From NCBI GenBank assembly GCA_965205605.1, contig CBDBHE010000008.1:40695-104694 (forward strand): DNA of 64,000 nt, in the 5' to 3' direction. Below the pieces are notes generated by a model. The model saw nothing but the letters and a program-made list of their open reading frames with translations. It had not been told where the DNA came from and did not search any database. How positions within the stretch are numbered: the stretch's first letter is position 1; the number at the start of each line of letters is the position of its first letter. This document shows positions 42,229-62,477 of this stretch, in pieces. This DNA comes from Spirochaetota bacterium (GTDB lineage: Bacteria; Spirochaetota; UBA12135; COTS27; CBDBHE01). A program made the translations under genes and the position numbers.

Positions 42229-42954
42229 ATGTTACAAACAGCCCAACTCACTTTTGAAAAAAATTATTCCCTTAAGCAATATGAAAAATCTATAGATTTT
42301 ATAGCAAAAAATAATTTTAAACAAGCCCTCTTTATTTTTGATGAATTGCTGAGAAAAAATGTATCAAGTCCACTTCTTTTTGACTTGATGAAATATATGC
42401 ATTTTTGGATTAATCGAGAAAAAGAAATTAATAATAAAAACAATGGAAGAGAAAAATCTCAATACTTACAAAAAGAATGGAATACTTTTGAAAAATTCAT
42501 TAAAGATAAAAAAATAGGAATTAATAATATTTTTTTTACTTTAAAAAAAACGATTCACAAAAAAATAAAAGAAGAATTAATTATAGAAATACAAAACTCT
42601 CATTACACAAATATAGACTCTCTTATTAATTTAGCAAAAATGATGAAAGAAGCAAAAGAAGAAAAAGAAGCTTTAGAAACTTTAAAATATGCTTTAAAAT
42701 TAAGTGAAAATAATTCTTCTGTATTTTTGTTATTGGGTGAATGCTACCAAGCATTAAAAGAAAAAGAAAAATCATCTTATTATTATAAAGAATTTTTTTT
42801 TTGGTCTGCTGAAGAAGAAATTGATTTAAAAGAAATTAAAGATTTAGAATTGATTAAACTTATTTTTCAATTAAGAGAAATGGGATTTAATGACAAAGAA
42901 ATTGTTTACTGGTTGCCTACTTATGCAAGAATTGAAAAATTTTTAAAAAATTAA
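42229..42954 (+). CDS. Hypothetical protein (alpha-helical, TPR-like)
   Basis: 241-aa ORF with no recognised catalytic motif; followed by a coding-like stretch interrupted by stops. Confidence 0.4.
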   Translation: MLQTAQLTFEKNYSLKQYEKSIDFIAKNNFKQALFIFDELLRKNVSSPLLFDLMKYMHFWINREKEINNKNNGREKSQYLQKEWNTFEKFIKDKKIGINNIFFTLKKTIHKKIKEELIIEIQNSHYTNIDSLINLAKMMKEAKEEKEALETLKYALKLSENNSSVFLLLGECYQALKEKEKSSYYYKEFFFWSAEEEIDLKEIKDLELIKLIFQLREMGFNDKEIVYWLPTYARIEKFLKN

Positions 42955-43206
42955 TAAAGCTTTAAGTAAAAAACAATTCAAAAAAGTAATCCAAAAAATA
43001 AAAGAAAGAGAACATGCTTATCAAGTTAATCCGACAAAAAAAAAAACTTAGAAGCTGTTTTAATTAATAGCTATTTATATATTATCGAACACTACTCCAT
43101 TACCGAAGGGTTTATTTGCGAAAATGTTTCTATTTTAATAAAAAAAATACAAAATCTTAATCCAACTATTTCAAAAAAATTAAACTTCATTTAAGTCATA
43201 CTTCCT

Positions 43207-43695
43207 ATGGAAATTATTAATACATTCAAAGAAAAATTAAAAGAAGACTTTATTACCAAGAAAGCAAACGAACAGTATTCTCTTAAAGATTTTCGAGAAG
43301 GCTTTGATTGGATAACAGAAGTGATTGAAAAAAAACTAGAAAAAGAAACTGAAGAAATTTTAAAAGATTACTTGAAAAAAAATGAATACTCTATTTTTTA
43401 TAACTATCTCCTAGCCAGTCTTTTTTATCGTTTAAAAATATCAAATGAAGACCTTAATAATAAACTTTTAAAAATAGCCTCTCAAACTCAAAAAGGAACC
43501 GTCCTTATCCATTTGGCAAAAGAGATCTTAAATCACTCGGTATCTTTAAATGCTTTAAATATCTTAGCTTTAGAATATGAAAAAGAACACGATGAAGATA
43601 ACCTTCTTGAAACTTGGGTTCAAATTTTAAAAATTGATAACATAAATACAACCCTTCCTAAAAGAATAGCTGCTTTAAAAGAAAAAAAAAAATGA
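43207..43695 (+). CDS. Hypothetical protein, N-terminal portion of a frameshifted gene
   Basis: 162-aa ORF ending KEKKK* inside an A11 tract (43682-43692); the +1 frame is open from 43679 to 45391. Confidence 0.5.
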   Translation: MEIINTFKEKLKEDFITKKANEQYSLKDFREGFDWITEVIEKKLEKETEEILKDYLKKNEYSIFYNYLLASLFYRLKISNEDLNNKLLKIASQTQKGTVLIHLAKEILNHSVSLNALNILALEYEKEHDEDNLLETWVQILKIDNINTTLPKRIAALKEKKK

Positions 43696-44050
43696 AACTA
43701 GTGAAGCCACTTATTATTATAAAATAGCTTTTATTAAAGCTTATGAATCAAAAGAAATTGAAGAAGCTTTAAAAATTTGGAAGCAATTATCAAAAATTAA
43801 CCCTAAAGATCCTGCTTTTTATCTTACTCAAGGTAAAAAAATAGCAAATAAACTAAACTCTGAAGAAAAAAGAAACTTATACAAATACATTATTAATTAT
43901 TATGAAAAAAATTTAGAAGGAAATGAAAAAGAATTTCTTTCTATTTTAAAATCAATTGTAAACAATAAAATTTTTCAAGAAAATCTTAATCATCTTTTAG
44001 CTAAGACTTACTCTAGACTCTATAAAAGCCACTCTCATTTAGAAGATGTT

Positions 44051-45391
44051 TTGGCAATGAGTGGTCTTACAAAAAAGAAGAACATCACAAAAGGAATCGA
44101 AATTTTTGAAAGTCATATTAAATATCACGTTGGAGCTTTTGTACTTCACAAAAGCTTTGGTCTTGGAATGATTGAATCAATTCAAAAACCTATGGGGAGT
44201 AAAATTTTTGACATGATCCAACAAACAAAATTAACTATCAAATTTGAAAAAAATAAAAATCACCCTATGAGTTTAAGGATCGCTATTAATTCTCTACAAG
44301 TTTTACCCGAAGAACATCTTCATGCTTTACACCATTTTAAAAAAGAAAAAATTAACGATATTTTAGAAAATCAAGAAAATTTCGCTTCTAGTATTTTGAA
44401 AACACTTGGAAAACCAGCCAGTGTTAAAGAGATAAAATCTCTTTTAATCCCTAAATTTATTGAAAATGCTAAATGGTCAGATGTATGGAAAAAACTAAAA
44501 GAAACTTTTCATCATTCTTCAAAATTTGAACTTAAAAATAAACATTATGACTTCTTTCAAGAATCTTTAAACATCGAATCAATAACGATAAAACTTTTTG
44601 AAAATAGCTCTTCACTAGAGAAAAAATATCATCAAATCGAATTTTATCTTATGCATTCTTCTAAATATAATGAAAATATATTAAATCAATTTACTGATTA
44701 CTTAAAAGAATATATCCAAAATAAAAAAGAAGATTCATTAAAAGCTCTTTTTTTACTTGAACACCTTATAAAAAGTTATCATTTAAAAATAACATTTGAT
44801 TTTGATCATTTTTTTAAAGCTCTCTTTGATATCCATTTAACTGAAAAAACATTTTCAAATTTAGAAACTAGTACTTTAAAAAACCTTTTTTTAAACTCTG
44901 TTTATAATTTAAAAAAAGTAAATTATGAAGAAACTATTTCTTTTTTACTAGAAAAAACTAATGTTGATAAAAAACAACTCATTATCGATCATGTCATTCA
45001 TAAGGGACAATATGAAATTTTAAAAACAATATTTGAAAATGCAACTAATCACTATACAAAATATCCTGAAACCTTTATTTTGCTTTCAAAGATCTTTATT
45101 GTTGACTATCCCCAACATTTTGATTTAAATAAAAGTAATGTTTTCTTAAAATTACTTAAAATAAGCTATGATCTCAACAAAGATTACACTCTCTCTAATA
45201 AAATTCTACATGGAAAAAAATTATTTTTACTCATCAAAAACTTTCTTTTTGAAGATGAAATTTTATTTGACCACCTTAAAAATGAAAAAAATAGTGAAAT
45301 TAAAAATAACATTTTTAAAGAATTAGAAAGTCTTTATTTTTTAGACAATTATTTAAAAGTTAAAATAAGAGAAGTTAGAGAAAAAGCCTAA
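44051..45391 (+). CDS. Hypothetical protein with CarD/TRCF-RID-like (Tudor-like) motif, C-terminal portion of a frameshifted gene
   Basis: Track ORF of 446 aa; its frame is stop-free for a further 124 codons upstream (43679-44050) with no ATG, so translation likely continues from the 43207 ORF. Motif YHVGAFVLHKSFGLGMIESI resembles the CarD / PcrA C-terminal Tudor-like signature. Confidence 0.5.
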   Translation: MAMSGLTKKKNITKGIEIFESHIKYHVGAFVLHKSFGLGMIESIQKPMGSKIFDMIQQTKLTIKFEKNKNHPMSLRIAINSLQVLPEEHLHALHHFKKEKINDILENQENFASSILKTLGKPASVKEIKSLLIPKFIENAKWSDVWKKLKETFHHSSKFELKNKHYDFFQESLNIESITIKLFENSSSLEKKYHQIEFYLMHSSKYNENILNQFTDYLKEYIQNKKEDSLKALFLLEHLIKSYHLKITFDFDHFFKALFDIHLTEKTFSNLETSTLKNLFLNSVYNLKKVNYEETISFLLEKTNVDKKQLIIDHVIHKGQYEILKTIFENATNHYTKYPETFILLSKIFIVDYPQHFDLNKSNVFLKLLKISYDLNKDYTLSNKILHGKKLFLLIKNFLFEDEILFDHLKNEKNSEIKNNIFKELESLYFLDNYLKVKIREVREKA

Positions 45392-49492: not shown

Positions 49493-50218
49493 TTAAAAAA
49501 AATCTTTATTTAACTCTTTATTCTCTATAGGAAAATAAAGAGTTAGTTCAGCTCCTTTACAATGTTTGTTAAAATCATATTTATTTTTAGCTATAATATC
49601 TCCTCCATATTCTTTAATAATACTTTTACAAATAGAAAGACCCAGCCCTCTTCCTAAAGATATTTTTGTACTATAAAACTCACGAAATAATTGATCATTT
49701 TTTGCTTCTAAAAAACCTTTCCCATTATCACTAATCATAACAACCATTTGATGATTAATTTCTTTGACTAAAAGACAAACATTGACTTTTTCATCATGAT
49801 CTCTTTTAGCTTCTATAGAATTTTTAAAAAGATTATAAAAGATTCTTTCAATTTTAGCTAAATTTCCAGAAATGAATTTATTGTTCGCCTTCCAAATTAA
49901 TTTAAAAGAAATGTTTTTACAAAAAAAATCTTCTTTCATAATAGAAGAAAAGACTTCAAATAAATTGGTTTTTTGATCAATCTTTTTTTCAGAAACTTCA
50001 TCTTGATAAAGTATTTTTGAAGCATCTTTTGACAAATAAATAATTTTATTAAGGGCAATATCTAACTTTCTTAAATCTTGATTTCTTTTTTCTTTAAAAA
50101 TATTTTTAAGGTTTTCTATGTAATAAAGCATTGTTGTACAATAATTATTAATATCATGATTTACTTTGACAAAAGCATCAATAACATTTTTAGAATTTTT
50201 AATTTGCTTTGTGGTCAA
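49493..50218 (-). CDS. Histidine kinase-like protein (cytoplasmic; HisKA-like helix plus HATPase_c)
   Basis: 241 aa; H-box-like VNHDINN, N-box region and G-boxes DNGKGF / GRGLGLSICK; no TM or sensor domain, no adjacent response regulator. Confidence 0.6.
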   Translation of the reverse strand: MTTKQIKNSKNVIDAFVKVNHDINNYCTTMLYYIENLKNIFKEKRNQDLRKLDIALNKIIYLSKDASKILYQDEVSEKKIDQKTNLFEVFSSIMKEDFFCKNISFKLIWKANNKFISGNLAKIERIFYNLFKNSIEAKRDHDEKVNVCLLVKEINHQMVVMISDNGKGFLEAKNDQLFREFYSTKISLGRGLGLSICKSIIKEYGGDIIAKNKYDFNKHCKGAELTLYFPIENKELNKDFF

Positions 50219-50359
50219 TAGTTTGATTTTATTAAATTTTAAAATTATTTAATTTTGTTATCTCTTTTCATTATAAAAAATGGATATAAGACTTAAGAAA
50301 ATAATTATAGAAGAATTTTTTAAAAATTAAAATTTTTTTTAAAAAATTCTTATAGTTTC

Positions 50360-50732
50360 TTAGATTTTAGCTCTTTGTAAAATAACGTCAACAATCTTTT
50401 CATGAAGACCTAAAGGAGGTGTGATTTCATAAACAATATTGGGATACTTCAAAGCAGCTTGTTTAACTAACCTTGGGATATCTTCTTGAACATGCCTACC
50501 GAAACTTAACATATAAGGGTGTACTTTAATAAAATCTACTTTTGCTTTAGCACAAAGAGTAAAACTTTCTTGTATATTTGGGTAAGCTAATTCCATATGA
50601 GCACAAACAACAAAAATATCTTTACATTTTTTTTGCACCATTTTACCTAAAGAATCAAGCATTTTATTAGCTTTTTTTTTTTTAGAACCGTGGTCAACGA
50701 TTAATAAAGCTGTTTTTTTAAATTGATTCATC
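50360..50732 (-). CDS. cbiX: CbiX-like sirohydrochlorin chelatase (small form)
   Basis: ALLIVDHGSKKKKANKML N-terminal motif (catalytic His in DHGS). Start placed at internal Met because the upstream 36 codons look like translated AT-rich spacer. Confidence 0.55.
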
Positions 50733-51096
50733 AAAATAAATTTTATTAAAATTTTGATATTGATTTCATCATGATTGAAAAATATTTTTAATGATAAAAT
50801 AAAAAAAAAAAAATCAAAATAAAGCTGGTTTTTTTTCAAAAAGATTTAATTAGTTTCATTAAAACATTTTTTTATGATATTTTTTATTATTTTTTTTCAA
50901 ATCTTAAAAAAAGAAAAATTCCTTCTACCTTTATTTGCTTCACCTAATGATAAGAATGGCAAAAAAATACCTTAGATATCATCTTTAGAATCCAAATCTT
51001 TATCTTACAGACAATTATTTTTCTAAAAAATGAAAAATATTTTTTAAACTTATTTACCAAAGAGTAAACTTTTTTTTATATTATTTATAAAAAAAA

Positions 51097-53121
51097 TTAG
51101 TTTATTTTATCTATTAAATACTTTTGGACATCTTTTCTAGACTTTTTTAAAAGTTCGAAATCTCTTTCTAAAACACCTATTTTAAATTGTGGAATACCAG
51201 ATTGTTTTTGTCCTAAAAATTCTCCAGGTCCTCTAGTTTGTAAATCTATTTCTGCCAACTTAAAGCCATCTTGTATGTTACAAAAAGCATCCAATCTGAA
51301 ATAAGCTTTTTCTAATACATCATCTTGATGTATTAAATAACAAAAATTATCACTACGATTTCTTCCAATACGTCCCCGTAATTGATGCAATTGAGAAAGC
51401 CCAAAGCGTTGTGAAGATTCAATAATAAGTACCGTTGCATTTGGATAATGAATTCCTACTTCAATAACCGTAGTGGTGAAAAGTACTTTAACAATTCCTT
51501 TTTCAAATTCTTTTAAAGATCGCTCTCTATCTTCTAAATCACTTTTTCCATGAATCATCGCAATCGGAATTGATTTAAAAATATTTTTTTTAAAAAAATC
51601 AAATTCTTTTATAAGTGATTTATTTGTTTTTCCAACACCTCCCTCAATTGTTGGAAAAACAACATAGCCTTGCTCTCCTTTTTTAATTCGATCCATTAAA
51701 AACCGATAGGCATGCATACGATCCTTTTCCAGCAGTAACTTTGTCTGCTTTTTTTTATAATTTAAAGGAAGCTCTTTAATAGTGCTAAAATCTAAATCTC
51801 CAAAAAATGTCATACAAAGAGATCTTGGTATCGGAGTTGCTGACATTGTTAAACTATCTACAAAGGTTCCTTTTTTTTTGAGTTTTTCCCTTTGTTCAAC
51901 ACCAAATTTATGCTGTTCATCAATCACAACATATTTTAAATCTAAAAAAAAAACAGAATCTTGAATCAAAGAATGCGTTCCTATAACCATAAGGGCTTTT
52001 TTGTTTTTTATTTGATGTAAGACTTCTTTTTTTTCCTCTTCACTAATAGAATTTGTCAATAAACAAAAAACAATTTCCATAGACGTTAAATATTTTTTAA
52101 AAGTTTTATAATGCTGCCTAGCAAGCATATCCGTTGGTACCATTAAAACACACTGGTGATCGCTTTCGTAGCATAACAACATGGTTATCAAAGCAACCAA
52201 CGTTTTACCACTACCAACATCTCCTTGTAAAAGCCTATTCATCACTTTTTCTGTTTTCATATGTTCAGTAATTTCAGAGATGACTTTTTTTTGATCCGAT
52301 GTTAAATCAAAAGAAAGATTTTTTTGAAAAAATAAAATCAATTGAGAGTGTTTTAAATAACGATTTTTTTCTTTTCCTTTTTCACTATTAAGTTTTTTTT
52401 TATAAAGCTGATACTGAAAACCAAAGAATTCTTCATAAATTAATCGACTTCTAGATTCTTTTAAAGCTTGGTGAGAAGAAGGAAAATGCGTTGTTTTCAA
52501 ATCTTTTTTTTTGCTATCAAAATAACGATACTGTTTAATAATTTCTTTTGGAAGCTCGTAATGAAAACAAGTATCTGAAAAATTGTCAAACACACTTTTT
52601 ATCAAAGATCGAATATTTTTTTGACTCAACCCCTGCGTTGAAGAATAAATAGGAACAATACGCCCTAAGTGAATACTATTAAAACCCTCTTCATCAAAAA
52701 CTTCATAATCTAAAAGCGTTAACTCATACTTATAGTTTTTCCATTTAACTTTTCCTGATAAAATATAATGTTCATTTTCTTTAAAGTAACGAAAAAAAGG
52801 ATTAAAAGCTGTAAAAGCTAGCTTCTCTTTATTATCAGTAAAAACAAATTTCTTAATTTTTCTATTTTTAAAACGGAACTCATTTTTCTTAATACAAACA
52901 CAAATAATCGTTGCTACAAAATTTTCATCTTCTTTGCATTTTTGAGCAGAATCATGAATCGATAAAATAGAAGAACGATCTTCATAACGAATAGGAAAAT
53001 AAAAAAGTAAATCCTTAACAGTAAAAATATTTTTTTTGATATAAAGATTAGCTTTATAAGAAGTAATTCCTTTTAAAAAACTAATCTTTTGTAAAAGATT
53101 AGTTTTTGTATTTTCAAACAA
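51097..53121 (-). CDS. recG: ATP-dependent DNA helicase RecG
   Basis: Walker A LLQGDVGSGKTLVA, DEQHKFG motif, N-terminal wedge region; 674 aa. Confidence 0.9.
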   Translation of the reverse strand: MFENTKTNLLQKISFLKGITSYKANLYIKKNIFTVKDLLFYFPIRYEDRSSILSIHDSAQKCKEDENFVATIICVCIKKNEFRFKNRKIKKFVFTDNKEKLAFTAFNPFFRYFKENEHYILSGKVKWKNYKYELTLLDYEVFDEEGFNSIHLGRIVPIYSSTQGLSQKNIRSLIKSVFDNFSDTCFHYELPKEIIKQYRYFDSKKKDLKTTHFPSSHQALKESRSRLIYEEFFGFQYQLYKKKLNSEKGKEKNRYLKHSQLILFFQKNLSFDLTSDQKKVISEITEHMKTEKVMNRLLQGDVGSGKTLVALITMLLCYESDHQCVLMVPTDMLARQHYKTFKKYLTSMEIVFCLLTNSISEEEKKEVLHQIKNKKALMVIGTHSLIQDSVFFLDLKYVVIDEQHKFGVEQREKLKKKGTFVDSLTMSATPIPRSLCMTFFGDLDFSTIKELPLNYKKKQTKLLLEKDRMHAYRFLMDRIKKGEQGYVVFPTIEGGVGKTNKSLIKEFDFFKKNIFKSIPIAMIHGKSDLEDRERSLKEFEKGIVKVLFTTTVIEVGIHYPNATVLIIESSQRFGLSQLHQLRGRIGRNRSDNFCYLIHQDDVLEKAYFRLDAFCNIQDGFKLAEIDLQTRGPGEFLGQKQSGIPQFKIGVLERDFELLKKSRKDVQKYLIDKIN

Positions 53122-53902
53122 TTTGCTTTTTGAGAATTTTTTGAGTATTTCCGTTTAGTTCATTTTTAAAACAAATTTTTTCTAAAGCATAATCTATTAT
53201 TTTTTTATCACAAGCACTCAAAGTATTAAGAATCAAGTCATTGATTTCATAAGAGAAATTTTTAGAATACACAATTAGTAAACCATCAATACAGTCAACT
53301 AGCTTCAAGCCACCCACCAACCTAATTCCCTCTTTAACAAAGACTTCATCTTCTTCTTTCAAAATCAAATCCCATAAAGAATAAATAGATTTATCATTTT
53401 TTTTAAGTCTCAATACTTTTAAAATAGAAGTTTTTTCATTACGCATTTGAATTGCTTCATATTGCTTAATTAATAAATTTTCTGTTATTCTTTTCAAAGA
53501 ATACTCTTCCTTAGTAAAATTAATCTTAAAAAGATTTGGAATACAATAATAAGAAAATTTAATTTCTAAGATTCTATTTTCAAAAATTTCTTTAGTAATA
53601 ACAGGGTTTTGATTTTTTTTCTTTAATTGCTTAAAATGTTTTTTTATAAAATCTACTTTTTCAAAATCAAAATATTTTTGTCCTACATTGATTCGGTTTT
53701 TAATAAATTGATAAGCTCTAAGAAGCTTTTTAAATATTTCTTGATTTGAGTTTTTTTGATCGCTTGTATCAGGATGGTATTTAAAAAGAGCTTTTTTATA
53801 AGCTTTTTTTAAATTAGGCAATGTACAATCAAAGCCAACGCCTAATAAATCATAATATTCTTTAAACATCTTTATTTTTATTATACTCTTTATAATCGTC
53901 AA
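53114..53902 (-). CDS. J-domain (DnaJ-like) protein, otherwise uncharacterised
   Basis: N-terminal YYDLLGVGFDCTLPNLKKAYKKALFKYHPD with the HPD tripeptide; remainder unrecognised; 3' end overlaps recG by 8 nt. Confidence 0.55.
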   Translation of the reverse strand: MTIIKSIIKIKMFKEYYDLLGVGFDCTLPNLKKAYKKALFKYHPDTSDQKNSNQEIFKKLLRAYQFIKNRINVGQKYFDFEKVDFIKKHFKQLKKKNQNPVITKEIFENRILEIKFSYYCIPNLFKINFTKEEYSLKRITENLLIKQYEAIQMRNEKTSILKVLRLKKNDKSIYSLWDLILKEEDEVFVKEGIRLVGGLKLVDCIDGLLIVYSKNFSYEINDLILNTLSACDKKIIDYALEKICFKNELNGNTQKILKKQIV

Positions 53903-53968
53903 TAATTATTATTATTTTTAGCTTATTTAACAAAGATAAAATAGAATTTTAAAAAAAACTAAAAGGAA

Positions 53969-54541
53969 TTAGAAATTTTTTTTAGCAAGACCTAAAAGAG
54001 AAATTTCATCTATAGAAAGATTAAGTTTTTTTGCTATTTCTCTATTAGAGATATTTTTTTTTTTAAAATAAAAAAGTTTTTCTTCCAAAGTCATTTTGTG
54101 AAAAGACTCTTGTTCTTTTTCTTCTAAATAATTTTTTAAAGAAATTGATGAAGTTTTTAAATTTGAAACACCTCGATAAGCCTTTTGAACAGAAGAATCT
54201 TGAAGTTCTTTTTTATCTTTTTTTTGATCATTAAAAATAGATATTGTAGAATTATTTTGTTTATTTAATTTTTTATTAACAAATTCTCCCTTTAAAAAGT
54301 ATTCTTTTTTTTTTATATTTAATTTTTCTTCAATAATTTTTACTATTTTTTTATTTTCTTCAATTTTATCTTCTATTAAAGAAATATTTCTATCAGCATA
54401 CTTGTTAAAAGAAATAATCAAAAGGTCAAGTTCATTTTTAATATCTTGCGTAAGAATCTCTTTTTTAATTTTGTTTTTAAAAAAAAACAAAAAACCAAAA
54501 TTAACAATAAGTTGAAAAATAATTATTAAAAAATAAATCAT
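53969..54541 (-). CDS. Hypothetical membrane-anchored protein with C-terminal helix-turn-helix
   Basis: N-terminal TM helix (IYFLIIIFQLIVNFGFLFFF); C-terminal NREIAKKLNLSIDEISLLGLAKK resembles a sigma-70 region-4 / LuxR-type HTH. Confidence 0.45.
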   Translation of the reverse strand: MIYFLIIIFQLIVNFGFLFFFKNKIKKEILTQDIKNELDLLIISFNKYADRNISLIEDKIEENKKIVKIIEEKLNIKKKEYFLKGEFVNKKLNKQNNSTISIFNDQKKDKKELQDSSVQKAYRGVSNLKTSSISLKNYLEEKEQESFHKMTLEEKLFYFKKKNISNREIAKKLNLSIDEISLLGLAKKNF

Positions 54542-54858
54542 TAGTATTCTTTAATATCTAAAAAGTTTCCTTTATATTTTTCATCTCGCTTATCTTTTTC
54601 ATCTGTAGTTTTATCTTCTTCTTTTTTATTGTTACTTTTGGATTTTTTTTTTTCATCACTTAACTTAAGACTTCCTACAACATTTTTATCCACTTGAGTT
54701 TTATCAACTTCAACAATAATATTTTCTCTTTTTAATTCTATTTTTTGATCTTTAGCTATTTTTTCATCCCTTCTTTTAACTTTGTTTTGTAGTTCTCTTT
54801 TAGAAACACTGCTTGTTTGCTTTAATAAAAGTTGTAAATCAATAGGTCTAAGAGACAT
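54541..54858 (-). CDS. Hypothetical small, highly charged (Lys/Glu/Asp-rich) protein
   Basis: 105-aa ORF; stop overlaps the next ATG by 1 nt (TAATG), suggesting translational coupling. Confidence 0.4.
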   Translation of the reverse strand: MSLRPIDLQLLLKQTSSVSKRELQNKVKRRDEKIAKDQKIELKRENIIVEVDKTQVDKNVVGSLKLSDEKKKSKSNNKKEEDKTTDEKDKRDEKYKGNFLDIKEY

Positions 54859-54864
54859 TAAATA

Positions 54865-56856
54865 TCACCTTTTTCTTCTTCTTGATTTGATAGCTTCAAG
54901 CTTAACATATTCTGGATTTTCAATGTCTTGTATATATTTAGAAGCTCCTTGATCTCTTTTATTTTCTAAAATAGCTGTGTTACAAATCAAAGTAACCCCA
55001 ACCATCATTCTTGATAAAACAGTCACACTTCCCTCCTCTTCAGAATTTTCAATTGCCATTTTTATCTGTTCTAATTTTTCTTTATTTTGAACATGGTTTT
55101 CTTCTAAAGAATTAAGTTTATTTTGAAACTCTTTAAGTTTTAATTGTTTTTCTTCACCGTCTTCTTGCTGGTTTTCAAGATTTTTAATATCCAATTCGAA
55201 AGCTCTTTTTTGATCATCATATTGTTCAATTAATTTTGTGTATTTGTTAAAGCCAATCCTAATTTGAGGCAAAACTCCTACATAGACTTCTGTTTTTGCT
55301 CCAGCAACAGCTCCAAGAGAACGACAAAAAACTTCTTTTAAAGCTCTTATGACACCCCCTGTAATTCCTGCTTTTTTACCTTTTAAAAATAATGACTCAT
55401 CTGTATTAACTTCACAATTAATCACAGACTCTGCAACTAAAACTTCTTTTTTTGATCTTACATAGCAGTCTTGTAAATATTTAGCCCTCACAGATCCTGA
55501 TGTACTCACTAATTTTCCAGAAGACTTCCCATTAACCCCTAAAAAAATAGTAATATCCCCTACGGCTTCTATATAACAATTACCAACATTTTTTTTAATT
55601 TCAATGTTACCACCTGATTTAATATTATATCCATCTAAAACAGACCTATTAACAACCACCGAACTTAAACTAGTAATATGCCCTGTTTGAGGGCCTACAT
55701 CTCCTTGTACAACATAAACATCCTTAACATGAAATACTTTTCCTTTTTCAACCACATGACCTGTTACACTAGCCTTCAAATAACGACCATTTGAAGCAAC
55801 ATAAGTATTTTCTCCACTCTCTAATTGAAATTCTTTCCCTTCAACACAACTAACAATTTCACCATAAACACTCATGCCATCTTTTCCTTTTTGGGGCATA
55901 ATTTTTTCTAAAATAATCTGATCTTTGACAACACTAACAACCGTACTAACTTCTTTAAAATCAATATTTTCATCATCAGAAATATTACCAAAATCAATCT
56001 TATTTTTAAGCTTTAATTTATTAATTAATTGAGCCCCTTTCCCTGCAACCGGTTTTATTCCTTCTGCAACAAGTTGAGGAATATTATAGTTTTTCATTTT
56101 TAAAACAGATTCAATTTTCTTATCATCAAATCCATAAACAACATGCCTTTCATCAAACAAATTTTTTATATCTTCAAGATCGATTTCTCTTCCATCTAAT
56201 TTAGGGGGAATAATTCGAATAAAAGCTTGCATTCTATTACTTGAAACCTCTAAATAAACTTTCCCATCTTTTAGTGGATCAAACGACCAATCTCCTATTT
56301 TTTCTAATTTTCCTTTAGATTTTTTTAAAATTAGCTTAAGCATCCTAAGATCAGCATTTTCAATACCTTTTTGACTTAATTTTTGAAGCATCATGGCTTC
56401 TGTGACTTTTTTACCTTTGCCTTTAGGAGGGTGGACTGCTATATATTTCCCTTGTCTTGTAACAACGATTTCTATTTTTCCATTAAAATTTTTAGATTTT
56501 TTCTGCATATCAAAATCACTGAAATTTTCAGATCCCCACTCACTTCCAGAAAAATCTTCAGCTCCTTTAGAATGAAATATAAATTTAAAAGGTTTTGACT
56601 TCATTCCAAATAAACCCTTACTTCCTCTTTCAATGATCTCATAATCAAGACGACTAATATCAACTCCTAACTGTTTAGATGCTACCTCAGAAGCAGACTC
56701 AATACTATCAGCAACAACTTCCAATCTAGAAGACTGATCAATGCTGATGAGTTTATCTTTACCATATTTTGTTTCAAAAAGAGCTCTTAAATTATCAAAC
56801 TCTTTTAAATTAACTAAATTTAACTTATTTTGACTTAAATATTCTTTAAAATCCAA
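54865..56856 (-). CDS. FapA-like (DUF342) flagellar-assembly-associated protein
   Basis: 663 aa immediately downstream of fliA; C-terminal beta-solenoid-like G/V-rich repeats and long coiled-coil tail as in DUF342/FapA. Family assignment from memory. Confidence 0.5.
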   Translation of the reverse strand: MDFKEYLSQNKLNLVNLKEFDNLRALFETKYGKDKLISIDQSSRLEVVADSIESASEVASKQLGVDISRLDYEIIERGSKGLFGMKSKPFKFIFHSKGAEDFSGSEWGSENFSDFDMQKKSKNFNGKIEIVVTRQGKYIAVHPPKGKGKKVTEAMMLQKLSQKGIENADLRMLKLILKKSKGKLEKIGDWSFDPLKDGKVYLEVSSNRMQAFIRIIPPKLDGREIDLEDIKNLFDERHVVYGFDDKKIESVLKMKNYNIPQLVAEGIKPVAGKGAQLINKLKLKNKIDFGNISDDENIDFKEVSTVVSVVKDQIILEKIMPQKGKDGMSVYGEIVSCVEGKEFQLESGENTYVASNGRYLKASVTGHVVEKGKVFHVKDVYVVQGDVGPQTGHITSLSSVVVNRSVLDGYNIKSGGNIEIKKNVGNCYIEAVGDITIFLGVNGKSSGKLVSTSGSVRAKYLQDCYVRSKKEVLVAESVINCEVNTDESLFLKGKKAGITGGVIRALKEVFCRSLGAVAGAKTEVYVGVLPQIRIGFNKYTKLIEQYDDQKRAFELDIKNLENQQEDGEEKQLKLKEFQNKLNSLEENHVQNKEKLEQIKMAIENSEEEGSVTVLSRMMVGVTLICNTAILENKRDQGASKYIQDIENPEYVKLEAIKSRRRKR

Positions 56857-56869
56857 AAAAAATAAACCT

Positions 56870-57673
56870 CTATAACAATGATTTTTTAATATCTTCTAAA
56901 TAAACTCTTAAATGCCTAATTGCTTTTGTATGAAGTTGAGAAATCCTTGATTCAGTGACATCTAAAACAGCCCCAATTTCTTTTAAAGTTAAATCTTCAT
57001 AATAATATAAAATAAGGACCTTTTTTTCTCTTTCTGGTAATTTCTGAATTTCTTTTGCAATCGTTTTTTGAATCTCTGCTTTTTCAACAGTATTATAAGG
57101 ATTTAAAGAACTAGGCGATTTTATCGTATCTTTAATAGAAACCTCATCATCTTCTTTACCCAAATACCAAACATCATCAAGAGAGCCAATTGTTGAATCA
57201 TTTGCCATATTAGTAATTCGTTCAACTTCAGATAAACTAATTCCTGTTTTTTCAACTAGTTCTTCATTTGTTATTTTTTTATTATATTCTTCTTGATATT
57301 TCTTTCGAATTTCCTCCATGAGCTTAAATTTCTGTCTAACCGATCTTGGCACCCAATCTAAGTTTCTAAGTTCATCATAAATTTGCCCTCTAATACGAGT
57401 AATCCCATAAGTTTTAAATTTTGTTCCTTTGCTAGGATCATATTTTTCAATCGCATCTAAAAGTCCAAACGTGCCAAATCCTACCAAGTCTTCAAATTCT
57501 ATATTATCTGGAATATTAAAAGCAACTTTTCCAGCCACATATTTAACTAAAGGAGAGTATTTAATAACAAAAAAATGTCGATATTCTTCCTTACTAGTTT
57601 TACGATATTCTTTCCAAATTTCAATCTCCCCCTCTTCACTAATATTTAAATCTAATTTAATTTTAACACTCAT
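56870..57673 (-). CDS. fliA: Flagellar RNA polymerase sigma factor (sigma-28, FliA/WhiG)
   Basis: Region 2 YSPLVKYVAGKV, region 4 HTH LTLKEIGAVLDVTESRISQLHTKAIRHLR; 267 aa; downstream of flhF-flhG. Confidence 0.85.
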   Translation of the reverse strand: MSVKIKLDLNISEEGEIEIWKEYRKTSKEEYRHFFVIKYSPLVKYVAGKVAFNIPDNIEFEDLVGFGTFGLLDAIEKYDPSKGTKFKTYGITRIRGQIYDELRNLDWVPRSVRQKFKLMEEIRKKYQEEYNKKITNEELVEKTGISLSEVERITNMANDSTIGSLDDVWYLGKEDDEVSIKDTIKSPSSLNPYNTVEKAEIQKTIAKEIQKLPEREKKVLILYYYEDLTLKEIGAVLDVTESRISQLHTKAIRHLRVYLEDIKKSLL

Positions 57674-57689
57674 TTTCTATCCTTAATAT

Positions 57690-58178
57690 TTACTTATTCA
57701 TTACTCTTCTAACAGCTTTAGCCAAAGTAGTGTCTTCTTCTTTTTCTATTCTTTCCATCTCTTGATTCACTTTAGGTTTTATTTTAATTCCTTCTTTCAA
57801 TGAAGAATTAGTCGATTGAGATTTAGAAGAAAATCCTTGCTCTATACCTTCTAAGTTAAAATCTACTTGATTAGTCTTGCTTGTAGAAATATTATTTTCT
57901 AAATTATCTTCACTAATTGTAATATCAACTTCTTCACCTTTGTTTGGATCTTTACTCTCACTATCTTTTTGATGTGAAGAAAACATAGCATTATAAATTT
58001 CAGGAACATAACGTTCTAAAAAATACATGATTGCTATAAATAACCCTGTCCAGAGAAATCCAGTTATTAGTGGTTTTAAAATCAAGGCTAAAAAATTACT
58101 AAAAAATAATATCTGCAGTAAAAAAGAAAAACAAGAAAGAAAGCCTCCAACGTAAAAAGGGATTTTATTTTTAAACAT
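57690..58178 (-). CDS. Hypothetical membrane protein (two TM helices plus acidic soluble tail)
   Basis: 162-aa ORF between flhG and fliA; no recognised domain. Confidence 0.45.
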   Translation of the reverse strand: MFKNKIPFYVGGFLSCFSFLLQILFFSNFLALILKPLITGFLWTGLFIAIMYFLERYVPEIYNAMFSSHQKDSESKDPNKGEEVDITISEDNLENNISTSKTNQVDFNLEGIEQGFSSKSQSTNSSLKEGIKIKPKVNQEMERIEKEEDTTLAKAVRRVMNK

Positions 58179-58207: not shown

Positions 58208-59098
58208 TTAAAAAGTACTAAATATCCTACTTAAAAAACTCTTCTTCTTTTGTTCTAAAAAAAAGTCATTATCTAATTTTTTTAAAAGATTGTCACTTAA
58301 ATCCTTAATTGAAACAGAGCATTTTGCTTCTTTATTAAAACAAACATATGGAATTCTTTTATAAAGAGCACGAGTAACGATTTCATCTTGAAAAACCATT
58401 CCCACATAATCAATAGAAACTTTCAAGTATTTAAGTGAAATATCTTTGATTTTTTTACTTACTTCCTGACCTTCTTTAATAGAATCAACCCGATTAACAA
58501 TTAAATTAATATTAGCAATATTTGATTTTAAAGATAACACCTTAATCATCCCATAAGCATCAGTAATAGCTGTTGGTTCAGGTGTTGTGACCACAAGTAC
58601 CATATTTGCTAACCTCAAAAAAGAAATAACATTATCAGATATCCCTGCACTCAAATCAATTATAATCAAATTATAATCTTTTAAATAGCTTAACTGTCCC
58701 ATTAAAAGCATTTTTTCTTCATTTGCTAAATTAGAAAGCTCATGGAATCCAGTCCCCCCAGAAATAATATCTAAATTATACTTTGTTTTACAGATGACTT
58801 CTTTTAAAGAACGTTCTCCTTTAAAAACATCATAAAGATTATATTTTGGTACAGCCCCTAAAAGAATATTGACATTTGAAAGACCAAGATCAGCATCAAA
58901 AACAAGTGTTTTTTTATGTCGAGAAAACAAAATTCCCAAATTAACTGCCAAACTTGTTTTTCCAACTCCTCCTTTTCCAGAAGCAATCGCAATGACTTTT
59001 TGATTGACTTGACGCTGATCAATAAGTTTTGAATATTCTGCTTTTCTTTTTTGCTCAACGATCTTTTTTAAAATAGCTGCTTGATTAATCATATCCAC
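58208..59098 (-). CDS. flhG: Flagellar number regulator FlhG (MinD/ParA-family ATPase)
   Basis: Deviant Walker A IAIASGKGGVGKTSLAVNLG; 296 aa; follows flhF. Confidence 0.8.
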   Translation of the reverse strand: MDMINQAAILKKIVEQKRKAEYSKLIDQRQVNQKVIAIASGKGGVGKTSLAVNLGILFSRHKKTLVFDADLGLSNVNILLGAVPKYNLYDVFKGERSLKEVICKTKYNLDIISGGTGFHELSNLANEEKMLLMGQLSYLKDYNLIIIDLSAGISDNVISFLRLANMVLVVTTPEPTAITDAYGMIKVLSLKSNIANINLIVNRVDSIKEGQEVSKKIKDISLKYLKVSIDYVGMVFQDEIVTRALYKRIPYVCFNKEAKCSVSIKDLSDNLLKKLDNDFFLEQKKKSFLSRIFSTF

Positions 59099-60357
59099 TC
59101 CTTTAAAAGAAGCTCTTCTAATAAAGAAGCTTCCAGCAATAAAATATCATTTGGGACATCTTGACCGTTGGTTAAAAAAGAAAGAGGGACTTTTAATTCG
59201 TAAGCCATACTTAAAACAGAACCTAAACTATAAGATTCGTCTGTTTTAGTGATCAATAAGCGATCAAAATTAGTATTTGAAAAAGGGTCAACGATTTTCA
59301 GGAGATCATTATAACGAAAAGAAGCGTTTAAACAAAGATAAACTTCTTTTGGATACCCTAAAAAATTTACAAAATCACTAAGTTCTTCTAAATGAAGTTT
59401 GTCATGTTGACTGGTACCTGCGGTATCAATAAAAATTAATTGTTTATTAATATATTTTTTAACTAATTTTTGAAGTTCATCTTTTTCATAAAGTACACTA
59501 AAAGGCACCCCCATAATATGAGCATATTTTTCAAGTTGAGCAGTTGCCATGATTCTTCTAATATCAAAGGTAGCCATAACAATAGATTTGCTTTCTTTGA
59601 CATAAAGCCTTGAAGCGATTTTAGCCAAAGTCGTTGTTTTCCCTACGCCTGTGGGGCCTACAAAAAAAAGAATGTTTGGATTAGCCGAATAAATTTTAAC
59701 ATCTCTCATGTATTCATATTGATGGCTAATAAAAGAAGCTAATTTTTTTTTATTTTCTTTAAAAGACACATCATTCAAATCCATTTTTTGACTGATTTCA
59801 AAAGCAAATTTTTTACTAAAATCTCGCTCTATTAAAAAATTAAAAACATTACTTTTTTTTACTTGAATCGTATCTAACAAATTGTCTTTTTTCTCTTTTT
59901 TTATCGATTCTTTTTTTTCCAAAAATTCATCTTGATTTAAAATAAAATTAGATTCTTTTTTTTGTCTACCAAAGTTTTCTTTTTTAACAGCGATCATTTC
60001 TTGAAGCTGACTTAATTTTTTACTTCTTTCTTGAAAGTAAGTTTTATTAAACAAATCTTTTTCTCTATTTTCATACCCTTCTAACATTTCTTGCAAAAAA
60101 TCATTAGAATTTATTTTTTTATTGGTTTTGATTAAATTTTCTTGTGATTTAAAAGGTAAATAATGATTTGTTTTCTTATAAGCAAGATTATCTAAAATTC
60201 CTGCTTGTATTTCAACAAAACGTTCTTTTTTTAAACCAAAAAATTTAGATTTCACAATATCATTTCTTTTTAAGATATAAGCATTAATCCCAAGAGTCAT
60301 AATCATTTTTTTCTTAGCTTCTTCAAAATTTTTAGCTACAAATCTTTTATATTCCAT
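59089..60357 (-). CDS. flhF: Flagellar biosynthesis GTPase FlhF (SRP-type)
   Basis: G1 motif FVGPTGVGKTTTLAKIA, DTAG motif; start placed at MEYKRFVAKNFEEA. Confidence 0.8.
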   Translation of the reverse strand: MEYKRFVAKNFEEAKKKMIMTLGINAYILKRNDIVKSKFFGLKKERFVEIQAGILDNLAYKKTNHYLPFKSQENLIKTNKKINSNDFLQEMLEGYENREKDLFNKTYFQERSKKLSQLQEMIAVKKENFGRQKKESNFILNQDEFLEKKESIKKEKKDNLLDTIQVKKSNVFNFLIERDFSKKFAFEISQKMDLNDVSFKENKKKLASFISHQYEYMRDVKIYSANPNILFFVGPTGVGKTTTLAKIASRLYVKESKSIVMATFDIRRIMATAQLEKYAHIMGVPFSVLYEKDELQKLVKKYINKQLIFIDTAGTSQHDKLHLEELSDFVNFLGYPKEVYLCLNASFRYNDLLKIVDPFSNTNFDRLLITKTDESYSLGSVLSMAYELKVPLSFLTNGQDVPNDILLLEASLLEELLLKEWI

Positions 60358-60380
60358 AAATATTTCCCTTTCTTTTTTTA

Positions 60381-62477
60381 TCAAAGCGTATAAACCACAT
60401 TAATATTATACCCATCTGCAACTTCATTTAAAGAAAGGATATTAAGATTTTTAAAATACCTAAACAAAAGATTTTTAAGAGGTTTTCTAAGCAAAGGGTC
60501 TACAATCATCAAATCATCAAACCCTTTTTGACGCACTTCTTTAATAGCAACATCAATTCTATCAATAAACTTAGAAAGAATATCTGTTGATATGTTAAGC
60601 ACACTTTGAGTTCCTTCCATTTCTGTAATACGATTTACAAGTTCATTTTCTAACTCAGGGGAAAAAACGATTCCATTTAAATTTTTTCCTTTATCTGCCA
60701 AACTAGCAGATATTTGTCTTTTTAATGTCGCTCTTACATACTCTGCAAGCATTTCATGTTCAGAAACAATAGAAGCATGATCACAAATGACTTCTAAAAT
60801 CAAACTAATGTTTCTAATAGAAACTCTTTCTTTTAAAAGTTCTTTTAAGATTTTTTGGATATCCCCAACTTTAATTTGCAACTTATCCATTTCCTCTAAA
60901 AGGCTTGGATTTTTCTTTTTGATATTTTCTAAAATACTTTTCACTTCTTTTCTACCCATAATTTCATGGGCATTTCTTTTAATGACTTCTGTTAAGTGAG
61001 TGGCAACAATTGTCGGCCCATCAACAACGGTAAATCCTTTTTTCTCCACATCTTCCTTTTCATTTTCTTCAATCCAATGTGCCCTGAGATCAAAAACAGG
61101 TTCTTTGATGACTTCCTTACCTTCTAAAATAGCTTCTGTTCCTGAAGTATTCATTGCCAAAAATTGATTAATTTTAATTGAAGAGCGCCCCACTTCTCCA
61201 CCACTTATTTTGATCACATATTCATCTGCTTCAAGTTGCATATTATCTGTAATGCGTAATTGAGGTACAATAACACCTAAGTCTAAAACAATTTGCTTTC
61301 TACTTTTTTTAATTCTCTCTAATAAATCACCACCCGATTTTTTATCTACTAAAGGAATCAATCCATAACCTAATTCAATCTCAAGTGGATCAACACTAAC
61401 AAGATCTACCATTTTTTCAGGAGTAAACTCATCTTCTTGTTTAATTTCATCTGCTTCAGATTTTAGCTCTCCTTTAATTTCTTCTTCTCTTTTTTGTTTA
61501 CTAATGTAATAACCTATATAAGTCATCAAACCAGAAGCCGATAAAAAAACCACCGTTGGAAAGCCTGGTATAAAACCAAGGACTCCCACAAAACCACCTG
61601 TAACATACAATATTTTAGGGTTGGTAAATAATTGATTCGATAAATCACTTCCCAAAGTACCCACAGAAACCGAACGTGTAACAACAACCCCTGTTGCCGT
61701 TGCCACTAAAAGAGAAGGTATTTGAGAAACAAGTCCATCTCCAACTGCAAGCATGACATAACTTTGAAGAGCTTCTTGAAACCCTTCACTACGAACAACC
61801 ATCCCTACAACGATTCCTCCAATAATATTAACAAGAGTAATCACAATACCAAGACGTACATCTCCTGAAACAAATTTAGTAGCACCATCCATGTTTCCAT
61901 AAAAATCTGCCTCTTCTTGAATCGCTCTCCTTCTAGTAAGGGCTTCTTTTTCTGTAATAAGCCCTGCATTCAAATCTGCATCAATAGCCATTTGCTTCCC
62001 CGGTAACGAATCCAACTTAAACCTGGCGCTCACTTCTGAAACCCTCGTTGCTCCTTTTGTAATGACCATAAACTGAGCCGCTGTGATAATAATAAATATA
62101 ATAAAGCCAATCACATAACTCCCACCAACAACAAACTCTGCAAAAGTACGCACTACTTTTCCTTCAAAACCCGCCCCTTGTGTCAAAATAAGACGAGTCG
62201 ATGAAACATTAACTGCCAAGCGAAAAACAGTAGAAAACAAAAGAATCGTTGGAAAAACAGAAAATTCTAAAACTGATTTTGAATACATCGTTGTTAAAAT
62301 AATCATCAAAGCAGCTATCAAATTAACCAGCATTAAAAAATCTAAAAAAACAGTCGGTAATGGAATAATCAACATTGCCAAAACAAAAATAACCCCAATC
62401 GATAAAAGGATATCTTTATTTTTAACCAAACTTAAAATTGAATTATAGGAAAGAACATTCGTTGAACTTTGAGCCAT
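60381..62477 (-). CDS. flhA: Flagellar type III export apparatus protein FlhA
   Basis: 698 aa; N-terminal polytopic domain and large cytoplasmic C-domain; position between flhB and flhF. Confidence 0.9.
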   Translation of the reverse strand: MAQSSTNVLSYNSILSLVKNKDILLSIGVIFVLAMLIIPLPTVFLDFLMLVNLIAALMIILTTMYSKSVLEFSVFPTILLFSTVFRLAVNVSSTRLILTQGAGFEGKVVRTFAEFVVGGSYVIGFIIFIIITAAQFMVITKGATRVSEVSARFKLDSLPGKQMAIDADLNAGLITEKEALTRRRAIQEEADFYGNMDGATKFVSGDVRLGIVITLVNIIGGIVVGMVVRSEGFQEALQSYVMLAVGDGLVSQIPSLLVATATGVVVTRSVSVGTLGSDLSNQLFTNPKILYVTGGFVGVLGFIPGFPTVVFLSASGLMTYIGYYISKQKREEEIKGELKSEADEIKQEDEFTPEKMVDLVSVDPLEIELGYGLIPLVDKKSGGDLLERIKKSRKQIVLDLGVIVPQLRITDNMQLEADEYVIKISGGEVGRSSIKINQFLAMNTSGTEAILEGKEVIKEPVFDLRAHWIEENEKEDVEKKGFTVVDGPTIVATHLTEVIKRNAHEIMGRKEVKSILENIKKKNPSLLEEMDKLQIKVGDIQKILKELLKERVSIRNISLILEVICDHASIVSEHEMLAEYVRATLKRQISASLADKGKNLNGIVFSPELENELVNRITEMEGTQSVLNISTDILSKFIDRIDVAIKEVRQKGFDDLMIVDPLLRKPLKNLLFRYFKNLNILSLNEVADGYNINVVYTL

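Follow-up and report, generated by a model that had tools for sequence, protein, structure and literature searches.

Locus organization

This report concerns a flagellar gene block of a Spirochaetota bacterium (assembly GCA_965205605.1), read from a stretch of 64,000 nucleotides (nt) of the contig CBDBHE010000008.1, which is referred to as the window throughout. On its minus strand, the genes flhF and flhG are followed by a gene for a protein with two transmembrane (TM) segments, by the sigma-28 gene fliA, by a fapA-like gene, and then by two small open reading frames (ORFs). The first of these encodes a charged protein of 105 amino acids (aa), and the second a membrane-anchored protein of 190 aa, bearing a C-terminal domain of the helix-turn-helix (HTH) fold, hereafter called the TM+HTH protein. 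These two genes are divergent new members of a known, named flagellar sub-module of spirochetes, with roles that are predicted only.

An original prediction, made from the letters of the DNA, had given the minus-strand order as flhF, flhG, 2-TM, fliA, FapA-like, 105 aa, 190 aa, J-domain and recG, and each of these ORFs lies where it had been placed. Its earlier domain calls for FliA/WhiG, FapA-like, DnaJ and RecG were borne out by Pfam and NCBIfam scans, which returned no match for the 105-aa protein and no more than noise for the 190-aa and 162-aa proteins. In a word-indexed search of 5.8 billion proteins, the 105-aa and 190-aa proteins have one close relative each (84-87% identity), and both relatives are encoded on the same 831-kb European Nucleotide Archive (ENA) contig (ERZ25069296, locus L001), with a gene order identical to that of the window. 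The features of the locus, all on the minus strand, are given below.

59089..60384, minus: flhF, SRP-type GTPase (PF00448 SRP54 at the matching position in the sister locus L001)
58208..59098, minus: flhG, MinD/ParA-type ATPase (ParA/CbiA families at the matching position in L001)
57690..58178, minus: FlgV-like 2-TM protein, 162 aa (phmmer links and shared motifs)
56870..57673, minus: fliA, sigma-28 of the FliA/WhiG family (NF004935, TIGR02479, Sigma70_r2/r3/r4)
54865..56856, minus: FapA-like protein, 663 aa (Jag_N, FapA_N and FapA beta-solenoid)
54541..54858, minus: small charged protein, 105 aa, at the 'YjfB' position of the literature (family alignment A5 and synteny)
53969..54541, minus: membrane-anchored TM+HTH protein, 190 aa (profile search, alignment A4, models)
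53903..53968, minus: non-coding spacer between the TM+HTH gene and the J-domain gene, extending to 53870 if the latter starts at its ATG (sequence)
53114..53902, minus: J-domain protein, 262 aa with a TTG start (DnaJ domain)
51097..53121, minus: recG (RecG models, 612-686 bits), a neighbour outside the flagellar module

All junctions had been described as gaps of 0-16 nt or overlaps. This stands for the gaps of 16, 13 and 6 nt and for the 1-nt overlap of the 105-aa and 190-aa genes, where the TAATG stop/start coupling at 54541 is present in the sequence, as is the 8-nt overlap between the J-domain gene and recG. It does not stand for flhG and the 2-TM gene, which are 29 nt apart, nor for the 190-aa gene and the J-domain gene, between which lie 66 nt if the latter starts at the TTG (53902), or 99 nt if it starts at the ATG (53869). 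The AT-rich spacer at 53870-53968 contains two weak sigma-70-like hexamer pairs, at 53933-53905 and 53902-53874, and may hold an internal promoter. Over the region, 41 promoter-like sites were counted, against 49.1 expected from shuffled controls, which is not above chance, and a scan of 50.8-60.5 kb found no minus-strand terminator. With the promoter count at chance level and no terminator, the sequence alone neither proves nor excludes co-transcription across the spacer. Searches with the sigma-28 promoter consensus returned no site within the module. The lone strict match to that consensus, at 39330, falls inside gcpE and is consistent with chance.

Conservation of the sub-module among spirochetes

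The genomic neighbourhood was compared across 80 spirochete loci centred on FapA homologues, in which ORFs were called and compared. The gene fliA lies immediately 5' of fapA in 62 of 82 sources, and flhG was matched by phmmer in 58 sources. By this synteny, the 105-aa and 190-aa genes are genuine companions of fliA and fapA in the flagellar operon, and are conserved as such. Progress beyond the sister sequence came through exhaustive profile searching and synteny, and not through direct homology searching. Two orphan-looking ORFs of a very divergent spirochete are thereby placed in families that are conserved at this position in the flagellar operons of spirochetes.

The neighbourhood has been described before. 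Zamba-Campero et al. (2024, Nat Commun, PMC11607428) identified bb0268 as FlgV, and placed flgV between the flhF-flhG sub-module and a second sub-module consisting of sigma-28, FapA, 'YjfB' and 'TM+HTH'. That study tests only FlgV, alongside a constructed fapA deletion strain, and names the remaining neighbourhood; its supplementary files contain no gene-level table for YjfB, TM+HTH, bb0265 or bb0266. The gene order and the phylum are the same as in the window, and the order was reproduced independently in the 80 loci. The suggestion of an undescribed module is thus not borne out, since the neighbourhood stands in PMC11607428 and the TM+HTH family corresponds to Pfam DUF6115 and NCBIfam SpiroCoCo_C. 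A false lead, that of an undescribed sigma-28 regulatory module, is thereby removed.

The small charged protein

The 105-aa protein has a conserved N-terminus, MSLRPIDLQ, and a conserved C-terminus, GNFLDIKEY, with a K/E-rich centre between them that is expected to be disordered. In alignment A5, 26 small ORFs align with it, the ends being conserved and the charged centre variable. Conservation in this family ('PIDLQ...LGxxIDIxG') is found only in the first ~20 and the last ~10 residues, as an N-terminal motif M-x-[IL]-x-P-[IL]-D-L-Q and a C-terminal motif G-x-x-[IL]-D-[IV], both of which are present in the window protein.

Position is conserved as well as sequence. In most loci, an ORF of ~103-123 aa starts a few nt from the fapA stop. 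Its coupling to the TM+HTH gene is tight or translational as a rule. A hidden Markov model (HMM) of the small family gave 52 significant matches among 2,287 ORFs, one per source, and all 52 lie downstream of fapA. The start falls within -30 to +80 nt of the fapA stop in 48 of them; three were called 46-55 nt upstream of that stop, which is attributed to start-codon calls, and one lies 307 nt downstream. When the window protein was left out of the model, its ORF was still recovered over its full length at E 1.1e-9.

The low-complexity, K/E-rich composition of the 105-aa ORF, which has no Pfam, NCBIfam or PDB match and so no database family, would fit a chance ORF in AT-rich DNA that is rich in lysine codons. 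Against this stand a similar-sized ORF with the same end motifs at this site in 52 sources, which include both GC-rich and AT-rich spirochetes, the leave-one-out value, and the sister-contig protein that is 84-87% identical; together they reduce a chance origin to a negligible prospect. Both the 105-aa and the 190-aa ORFs are genuine, being kept in the sister contig and, by family, in position across Spirochaetota.

Given the name used in the literature, the Pfam family YjfB_motility (PF14070) was considered for the 105-aa protein and set aside. The window protein has no match to it, one of 27 members of the small family matches at E 0.098, and neither the consensus nor constructs with the charged insert deleted match at E<=10.

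Leptospira spp. (L030, L033, L035, L037, L041-L050, L054, L071) carry, ~6-440 nt after fapA, an ORF of 96-122 aa beginning MRL[SN][DE]. It is not recognised by the small-family HMM (best E 0.075), and represents either extreme divergence or replacement. In about ten Leptospiraceae loci, the TM+HTH gene directly abuts fapA, fliA is not adjacent, and the small 'PIDLQ' ORF is absent; the small ORF thus co-varies with the adjacency of fliA.

The TM+HTH protein

An exhaustive profile search of 1.8 billion representative proteins gave 50 homologues of the 190-aa protein, ranging from 96 to 277 aa, many of them full length. Structurally, the protein begins with a TM helix at about residues 2-21, confirming the earlier description of it as membrane-anchored. 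A polar residue, Q10 (window ~54512-54514), lies inside this helix, and Q or N is conserved there in the family alignment A4. The juxtamembrane motif LLIISFNKYADRNISLIEDKI follows, within a long helix that runs to about residue 90, and its A4 consensus is L-I-I/V-x-F-N-x-x-A-D-x-N-I-x-L-L-E-D-R-I. The middle region is not conserved in A4, and the linker at ~89-131 is disordered. The protein closes with a four-helix HTH domain at 135-188, NISNREIAKKLNLSIDEISLL, which carries the A4 motif S-x-x-E-I-A-x-K-L-x-L-S-x-x-E-V-x-L. L173 and E179 are invariant; L182 of the window protein agrees with the consensus L, outside the invariant or nearly invariant columns.

AlphaFold2, run with A4, returned a model with a mean pLDDT of 76, with a helix at 2-92, disorder at 89-131, and the four-helix C-terminal domain at 135-188 at pLDDT 82-88. 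A Foldseek comparison with the PDB gave nothing significant (E >= 0.24); all of its best-ranked entries are HTH domains of the sigma-region-4, LuxR/GerE and resolvase kinds, which superpose on the C-terminal domain at 1.3-2.2 Å over 34-44 residues. The earlier description of a sigma-region-4-like HTH is therefore fair as a fold class (sigma-r4/LuxR/resolvase), resting on the model and the Foldseek check. A PDB sequence match to 8vd6, 'CAP repeat' (E 7.5e-14), was rejected as an artefact: 8vd6 is a repeat protein designed de novo, and its score adds up five weak matches to generic HTH-like repeats.

With an HMM built from A4, 68 sources show a matching ORF downstream of fapA. In 42 of these the small ORF precedes it, the median gap being 11.5 nt, and in Leptospira it comes after the divergent small ORF. 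The homologue is longer, at 275-342 aa, in the Leptospiraceae loci that lack an adjacent fliA (L023, L026, L036, L038, L058, L059, L061, L067, L070 and L040), and it is roughly double in length, at 315-410 aa, in Leptospira.

Family membership is reached through the homologues. Nine of the 20 A4 members match Pfam DUF6115, and three of them, P0045, P0048 and P0063, pass its gathering score (36.3, 30.9 and 35.1 against 27 bits); in the library of 1.8 billion proteins, the window profile reaches these same three at E 1.5e-5 to 2.2e-4. The NCBIfam model SpiroCoCo_C (NF047515) is likewise matched by nine of the 20, and the homologue of Treponema sp. OMZ 840 carries the UniRef name 'DUF6115 domain-containing protein'. 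DUF6115 and SpiroCoCo_C share their architecture and their conserved C-terminal HTH motif with the window protein, and are listed as families of 'unknown function'. Since the window protein itself lies below the model thresholds, its membership is transitive; by these profile links it is a divergent member of the DUF6115/SpiroCoCo family.

Comparison with SwrB and FipA

The gene for SwrB (YlxL) of B. subtilis closes the operon in which the sigma-28 gene lies, and full sigma-D activity needs SwrB indirectly, through activation of flagellar type III export. Its key residues are H13 in the TM helix, L48, F51 and L53 in the juxtamembrane region, and L155 near the C-terminus; L155P is a loss-of-function allele and H13 is needed for punctate localisation (bioRxiv 10.1101/2021.04.30.442225). 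The likeness to the TM+HTH family lies in the architecture: one TM helix at the N-terminus that contains a polar residue (H13 for SwrB, Q10 for the window protein, Q or N for the family), a conserved juxtamembrane hydrophobic motif, a poorly conserved middle, and a conserved C-terminal segment.

A SwrB sequence that was checked against the five published residue positions only, and agrees with them, has DUF6115 as its top Pfam match, at 26.7 bits and E 7.9e-6 over nearly its full length. Aligned to A4 with hhalign, this sequence gave a probability of 83.8% and E 7.9e-6 over 39 columns, covering the HTH only, and E179 and L182 of the window protein paired with E152 and L155 of SwrB. SwrB appears to belong to the DUF6115/SpiroCoCo family. 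Its host, B. subtilis, is without FlgV (PMC11607428), and the function of SwrB in activating type III export would carry over to the spirochete protein by analogy only.

In FipA (DUF2802), known from the gammaproteobacteria Vibrio, Pseudomonas and Shewanella, an N-terminal TM helix is followed by a coiled region, and a small helical domain forms the C-terminus; its gene lies just after the flhF-flhG-fliA-che operon. It binds FlhF through G110 and L129, and the changes G110A and L129A abolish this binding. G110, E126 and L129 of FipA show the same 16+3 spacing as N163, E179 and L182 of the window protein, as judged from the published motif; the first of these positions is G or N in 14 of the 20 A4 members. 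Three family members match DUF2802 on the same C-terminal HTH segment, below threshold (best 22.2 against 33.5 bits). Unlike the spirochete TM+HTH gene, fipA has neither an associated small protein nor a fapA neighbour. FipA is a more distant look-alike of the 190-aa protein than SwrB.

Taken together, the shared architecture, the operon context, and the spacing of residues that are important in SwrB and FipA make a testable link between the three. The TM+HTH proteins (DUF6115/SpiroCoCo), SwrB and FipA may share a single ancient origin, as a superfamily of flagellar assembly factors anchored in the membrane, in which a C-terminal HTH was repurposed for protein binding and couples FlhF/FlhG site selection to activation of the export gate, the spirochete factor being a two-part unit with the small 'PIDLQ' protein. 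We hold this broader idea tentatively, at somewhat less than even odds. If true, it contradicts the published absence of FipA homologues from Bacillus and spirochetes.

Proposed role of the two proteins

The reading that we prefer, with a probability of roughly 0.6, is that the locus is the spirochete flagellar sub-module (FlgV, FliA, FapA, the small 'YjfB-position' protein and TM+HTH) in a very divergent, AT-rich spirochete, and that the 190-aa protein serves as a SwrB/FipA-like membrane assembly factor. By analogy with SwrB and FipA, the protein would sit in the inner membrane at nascent basal bodies, probably with its C-terminus in the cytoplasm, and would self-associate through its long helix. 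The HTH-fold domain would be a protein-binding rather than a DNA-binding module, with FlhF or the type III export gate as its partner among the early components of assembly, and the protein would thus promote basal-body completion and export. Any effect on sigma-28 would then be indirect, the anti-sigma factor being exported once the export apparatus is active. As for the 105-aa protein, its tight coupling to TM+HTH and its conservation only at the ends would most simply make it a partner or adaptor, presumably a stoichiometric one, of the TM+HTH protein or of FapA.

Several points weigh against this assignment. The window protein itself has no match to DUF6115, DUF2802 or SpiroCoCo_C at E<=1, and all of the DUF2802 matches in its family are below threshold. 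The SwrB query was checked solely at H13, L48, F51, L53 and L155; it scores 0.3 bits under the DUF6115 gathering cutoff, and its match to A4, being confined to the HTH, could reflect generic HTH similarity. The authors of the FipA work report no FipA homologues in Bacillus or spirochetes. The label 'YjfB' comes from the literature only, as the small protein lacks a Pfam YjfB_motility match. An HTH of this fold class usually binds DNA. Lastly, the role of the TM+HTH protein in spirochetes is drawn from analogy with SwrB and FipA.

One alternative is that the 190-aa protein is a membrane-tethered DNA-binding regulator, acting on flagellar or late genes through its HTH. The superposition on DNA-binding domains at 1.3-2.2 Å over 34-44 residues speaks for it, as do weak Pfam matches of family members to Sigma70_r4_2, GerE, HTH_23 and HTH_7. 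These matches to DNA-binding families are, however, non-significant, with Foldseek at E >= 0.24 and the Pfam scores below their cutoffs. The would-be recognition helix presents an invariant glutamate and hydrophobic residues (S-x-x-E-V/I-x-L) instead of the basic or polar residues typical of DNA contact; the equivalent residues of FipA mediate FlhF binding, and SwrB acts on export, post-transcriptionally. We consider a DNA-binding regulator improbable.

The original prediction had noted that the two proteins sit where a partner or regulator of sigma-28 would be expected. In that reading, the 105-aa protein, the 190-aa protein or both would be an FlgM-like or membrane-tethered anti-sigma factor binding FliA directly. 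Their genes are indeed two and three positions 3' of fliA in one strand block, and the top Foldseek rows for the sigma-region-4-like HTH of the 190-aa protein include chains of the sigma-28/FlgM complex (E 0.45-0.9). The 105-aa protein resembles FlgM in being small, charged, probably disordered and encoded in a flagellar operon. That no FlgM is recognisable also holds, with no PF04316 match at E<=1 for these ORFs, although a 64-kb window cannot speak for the genome. Yet neither protein matches FlgM or any anti-sigma family at E<=1. The conserved motifs of the 105-aa protein lie at its extreme N- and C-termini, unlike the sigma-binding helices of FlgM, and its gene goes with fapA and TM+HTH rather than with fliA. 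The 190-aa protein enters its TM helix at residue 2 and has all of its soluble sequence C-terminal to that helix, leaving no room for the classical N-terminal cytoplasmic anti-sigma domain. The TM+HTH gene tracks fapA and not fliA, being kept in the ~10 Leptospiraceae loci where fliA is not adjacent, and Borrelia belongs to the published sub-module neighbourhood despite its loss of sigma-28 (PMC11607428). Of the relatives with a known function, SwrB has the export apparatus as its target and FipA has FlhF, and neither acts on sigma. A direct sigma-28 partner is, in our judgement, very unlikely.

The preferred reading, that of an assembly factor, bears on a wider matter. The positioning of FlhF and the licensing of export at the subpolar motors of spirochetes are still being worked out. 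In B. burgdorferi, we expect bb0265 and bb0266, between fapA (bb0267) and bb0264, to be the counterparts of the TM+HTH and small genes. If the link to SwrB and FipA is true, genes of this presumed bb0265/bb0266 type become candidates for coupling FlhF to the export gate.

Upstream genes: FlgV-like protein, fliA and fapA

In 56 sources, flhG and fliA are separated by an ORF of ~100-350 aa, with most between 157 and 292 aa. By phmmer, the 162-aa protein of the window matches this intervening ORF in 19 spirochete loci besides its own (E 4e-8 to 6e-3), while Pfam and NCBIfam models give it no match above noise. It has hydrophobic segments at about residues 8-33 and 37-55, the second of which is followed by ERYVPEIY, containing R57; an R/K-Y/F-V/L-P-E motif is aligned across 20 positional orthologues. 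The polar tail is disordered and closes with the peptide LAKAVRRVMNK, the sequence ending TTLAKAVRRVMNK, where the orthologues have (I/L/M)A(K/E)A(V/I)(R/Q)T(M/L)(M/L)(K/S)(K/R)D. FlgV of type 1 is marked by two N-terminal TM helices, a conserved arginine in or at the end of TM2, and a C-terminal peptide (PMC11607428). The gene lies between flhF-flhG and the fliA-fapA sub-module, the position of flgV, and, as judged from its sequence, the 162-aa protein has the hallmarks of FlgV type 1 (the BB0268 family).

The fliA product scores 349 bits with NF004935 and 268 bits with TIGR02479, and contains the Sigma70_r2, r3 and r4 domains. The FapA-like protein scores 173, 133 and 44 bits with the Pfam models Jag_N, FapA_N and FapA, respectively.

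Downstream genes: J-domain protein and recG

The J-domain protein matches DnaJ (PF00226) at 47 bits and contains the HPD motif, as KYHPD. Starting from the ATG at 53869, it has 251 aa and the canonical beginning MFKEYYDLLGV, and the TTG at 53902 adds 11 residues. The ATG is the more plausible start; the exact product of the TTG start is not in the protein collection.

What follows the module differs between lineages. In the window, the module is followed by the J-domain gene and recG, whereas Spirochaetales loci have, after the TM+HTH gene, a block encoding Hsp70, a J-domain protein that carries HEAT repeats, and CheA. Metagenome-assembled genomes (MAGs) of Leptospirales have cheR, cheD and yicC there. 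The Hsp70/J+HEAT/cheA block, in which a dedicated chaperone pair stands between flagellar and chemotaxis genes, occurs after TM+HTH in many non-leptospiral spirochetes, namely in L051 (8845-13170), L080 (8763-13003), L029, L056, L062, L075, L060, L052, L057, L079, L069 and L077. A J-domain/Hsp70 pair is thus a recurrent neighbour of the module in spirochetes.

Residues 85-262 of the window J protein match the non-J part of the J+HEAT profile at E 2.9e-4 among 2,288 ORFs, where noise begins at about E = 1, and the sister copy matches the same profile at E 2.6e-3. There is no Pfam HEAT match in the window J protein and no adjacent Hsp70 gene in the window, and BLASTP against a J+HEAT protein finds similarity confined to the J domain. 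The weak C-terminal similarity suggests, with weak support, that the J-domain gene is probably a remnant of the Hsp70-J(HEAT)-CheA block, from which Hsp70 and cheA would have been lost or moved.

The original prediction had the operon running into recG. Among the synteny loci, recG adjoins the module only in the window and in the sister contig L001, and here it does so after the 66-99 nt spacer and the J-domain gene; the juxtaposition is therefore specific to this lineage and not a feature of the module. Gene loss would account for it. One could also take everything from the 2-TM gene through recG as a single functional unit, linking flagellar assembly to chaperone function and DNA repair. All genes are on the same strand, the J-domain gene overlaps recG by 8 nt, no terminator-like site was found on the minus strand within 50.8-60.5 kb, and a J-domain protein paired with Hsp70 recurs beside the module in other spirochetes. 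The adjacency of recG in two contigs only and the spacer between the TM+HTH and J-domain genes argue otherwise. The Hsp70 and cheA genes that accompany the J protein in relatives are both missing at this locus, and the Leptospirales MAGs have cheR, cheD and yicC downstream instead. Such a unit is very unlikely.

Source lineage

The window has a GC content of ~28% and its copies of the module genes have diverged very strongly, with one close relative of each small protein in 5.8 billion. The homologues of its FapA-like protein are exclusively spirochetal (Leptospirales, Spirochaetales, Treponema, Exilispira), with <=34% identity to anything outside the sister. The window represents a deep-branching, poorly sampled spirochete lineage. 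The nearest homologue of the 190-aa protein outside the sister is P0027, with 39% identity, from the sponge metagenome SRR1802789 (L086, a contig of 899 bp), and this origin hints that the lineage of the window is associated with an invertebrate or marine host. In the sister contig L001, fapA is split into three called genes and flhA into two, and the J-domain gene is shortened to 127 aa, through either frameshift errors of the assembly or pseudogenisation.

Other observations in the window

Downstream of recG, at 49493-50839 on the minus strand, lie a CbiX-type chelatase (159 aa) and a protein of 241 aa that consists of little beyond a histidine-kinase ATPase domain, with no sensor or TM region, and which may be a truncated kinase. 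On the plus strand, 42229-45391 holds a run of three ORFs, of 241, 162 and 446 aa, for which Pfam gave no match at E<=1e-5 and which partly overlap the stretch of lowest GC in the window (22%, 42-44 kb). Also on the plus strand, at 37865-38731, a metallo-beta-lactamase-fold protein of 288 aa matches Pfam Anti-Pycsar_Apyc1 at 115.7 bits, against a cutoff of 50. This Apyc1-like gene stands in a housekeeping context, between pyruvate kinase and ispF/ispG.

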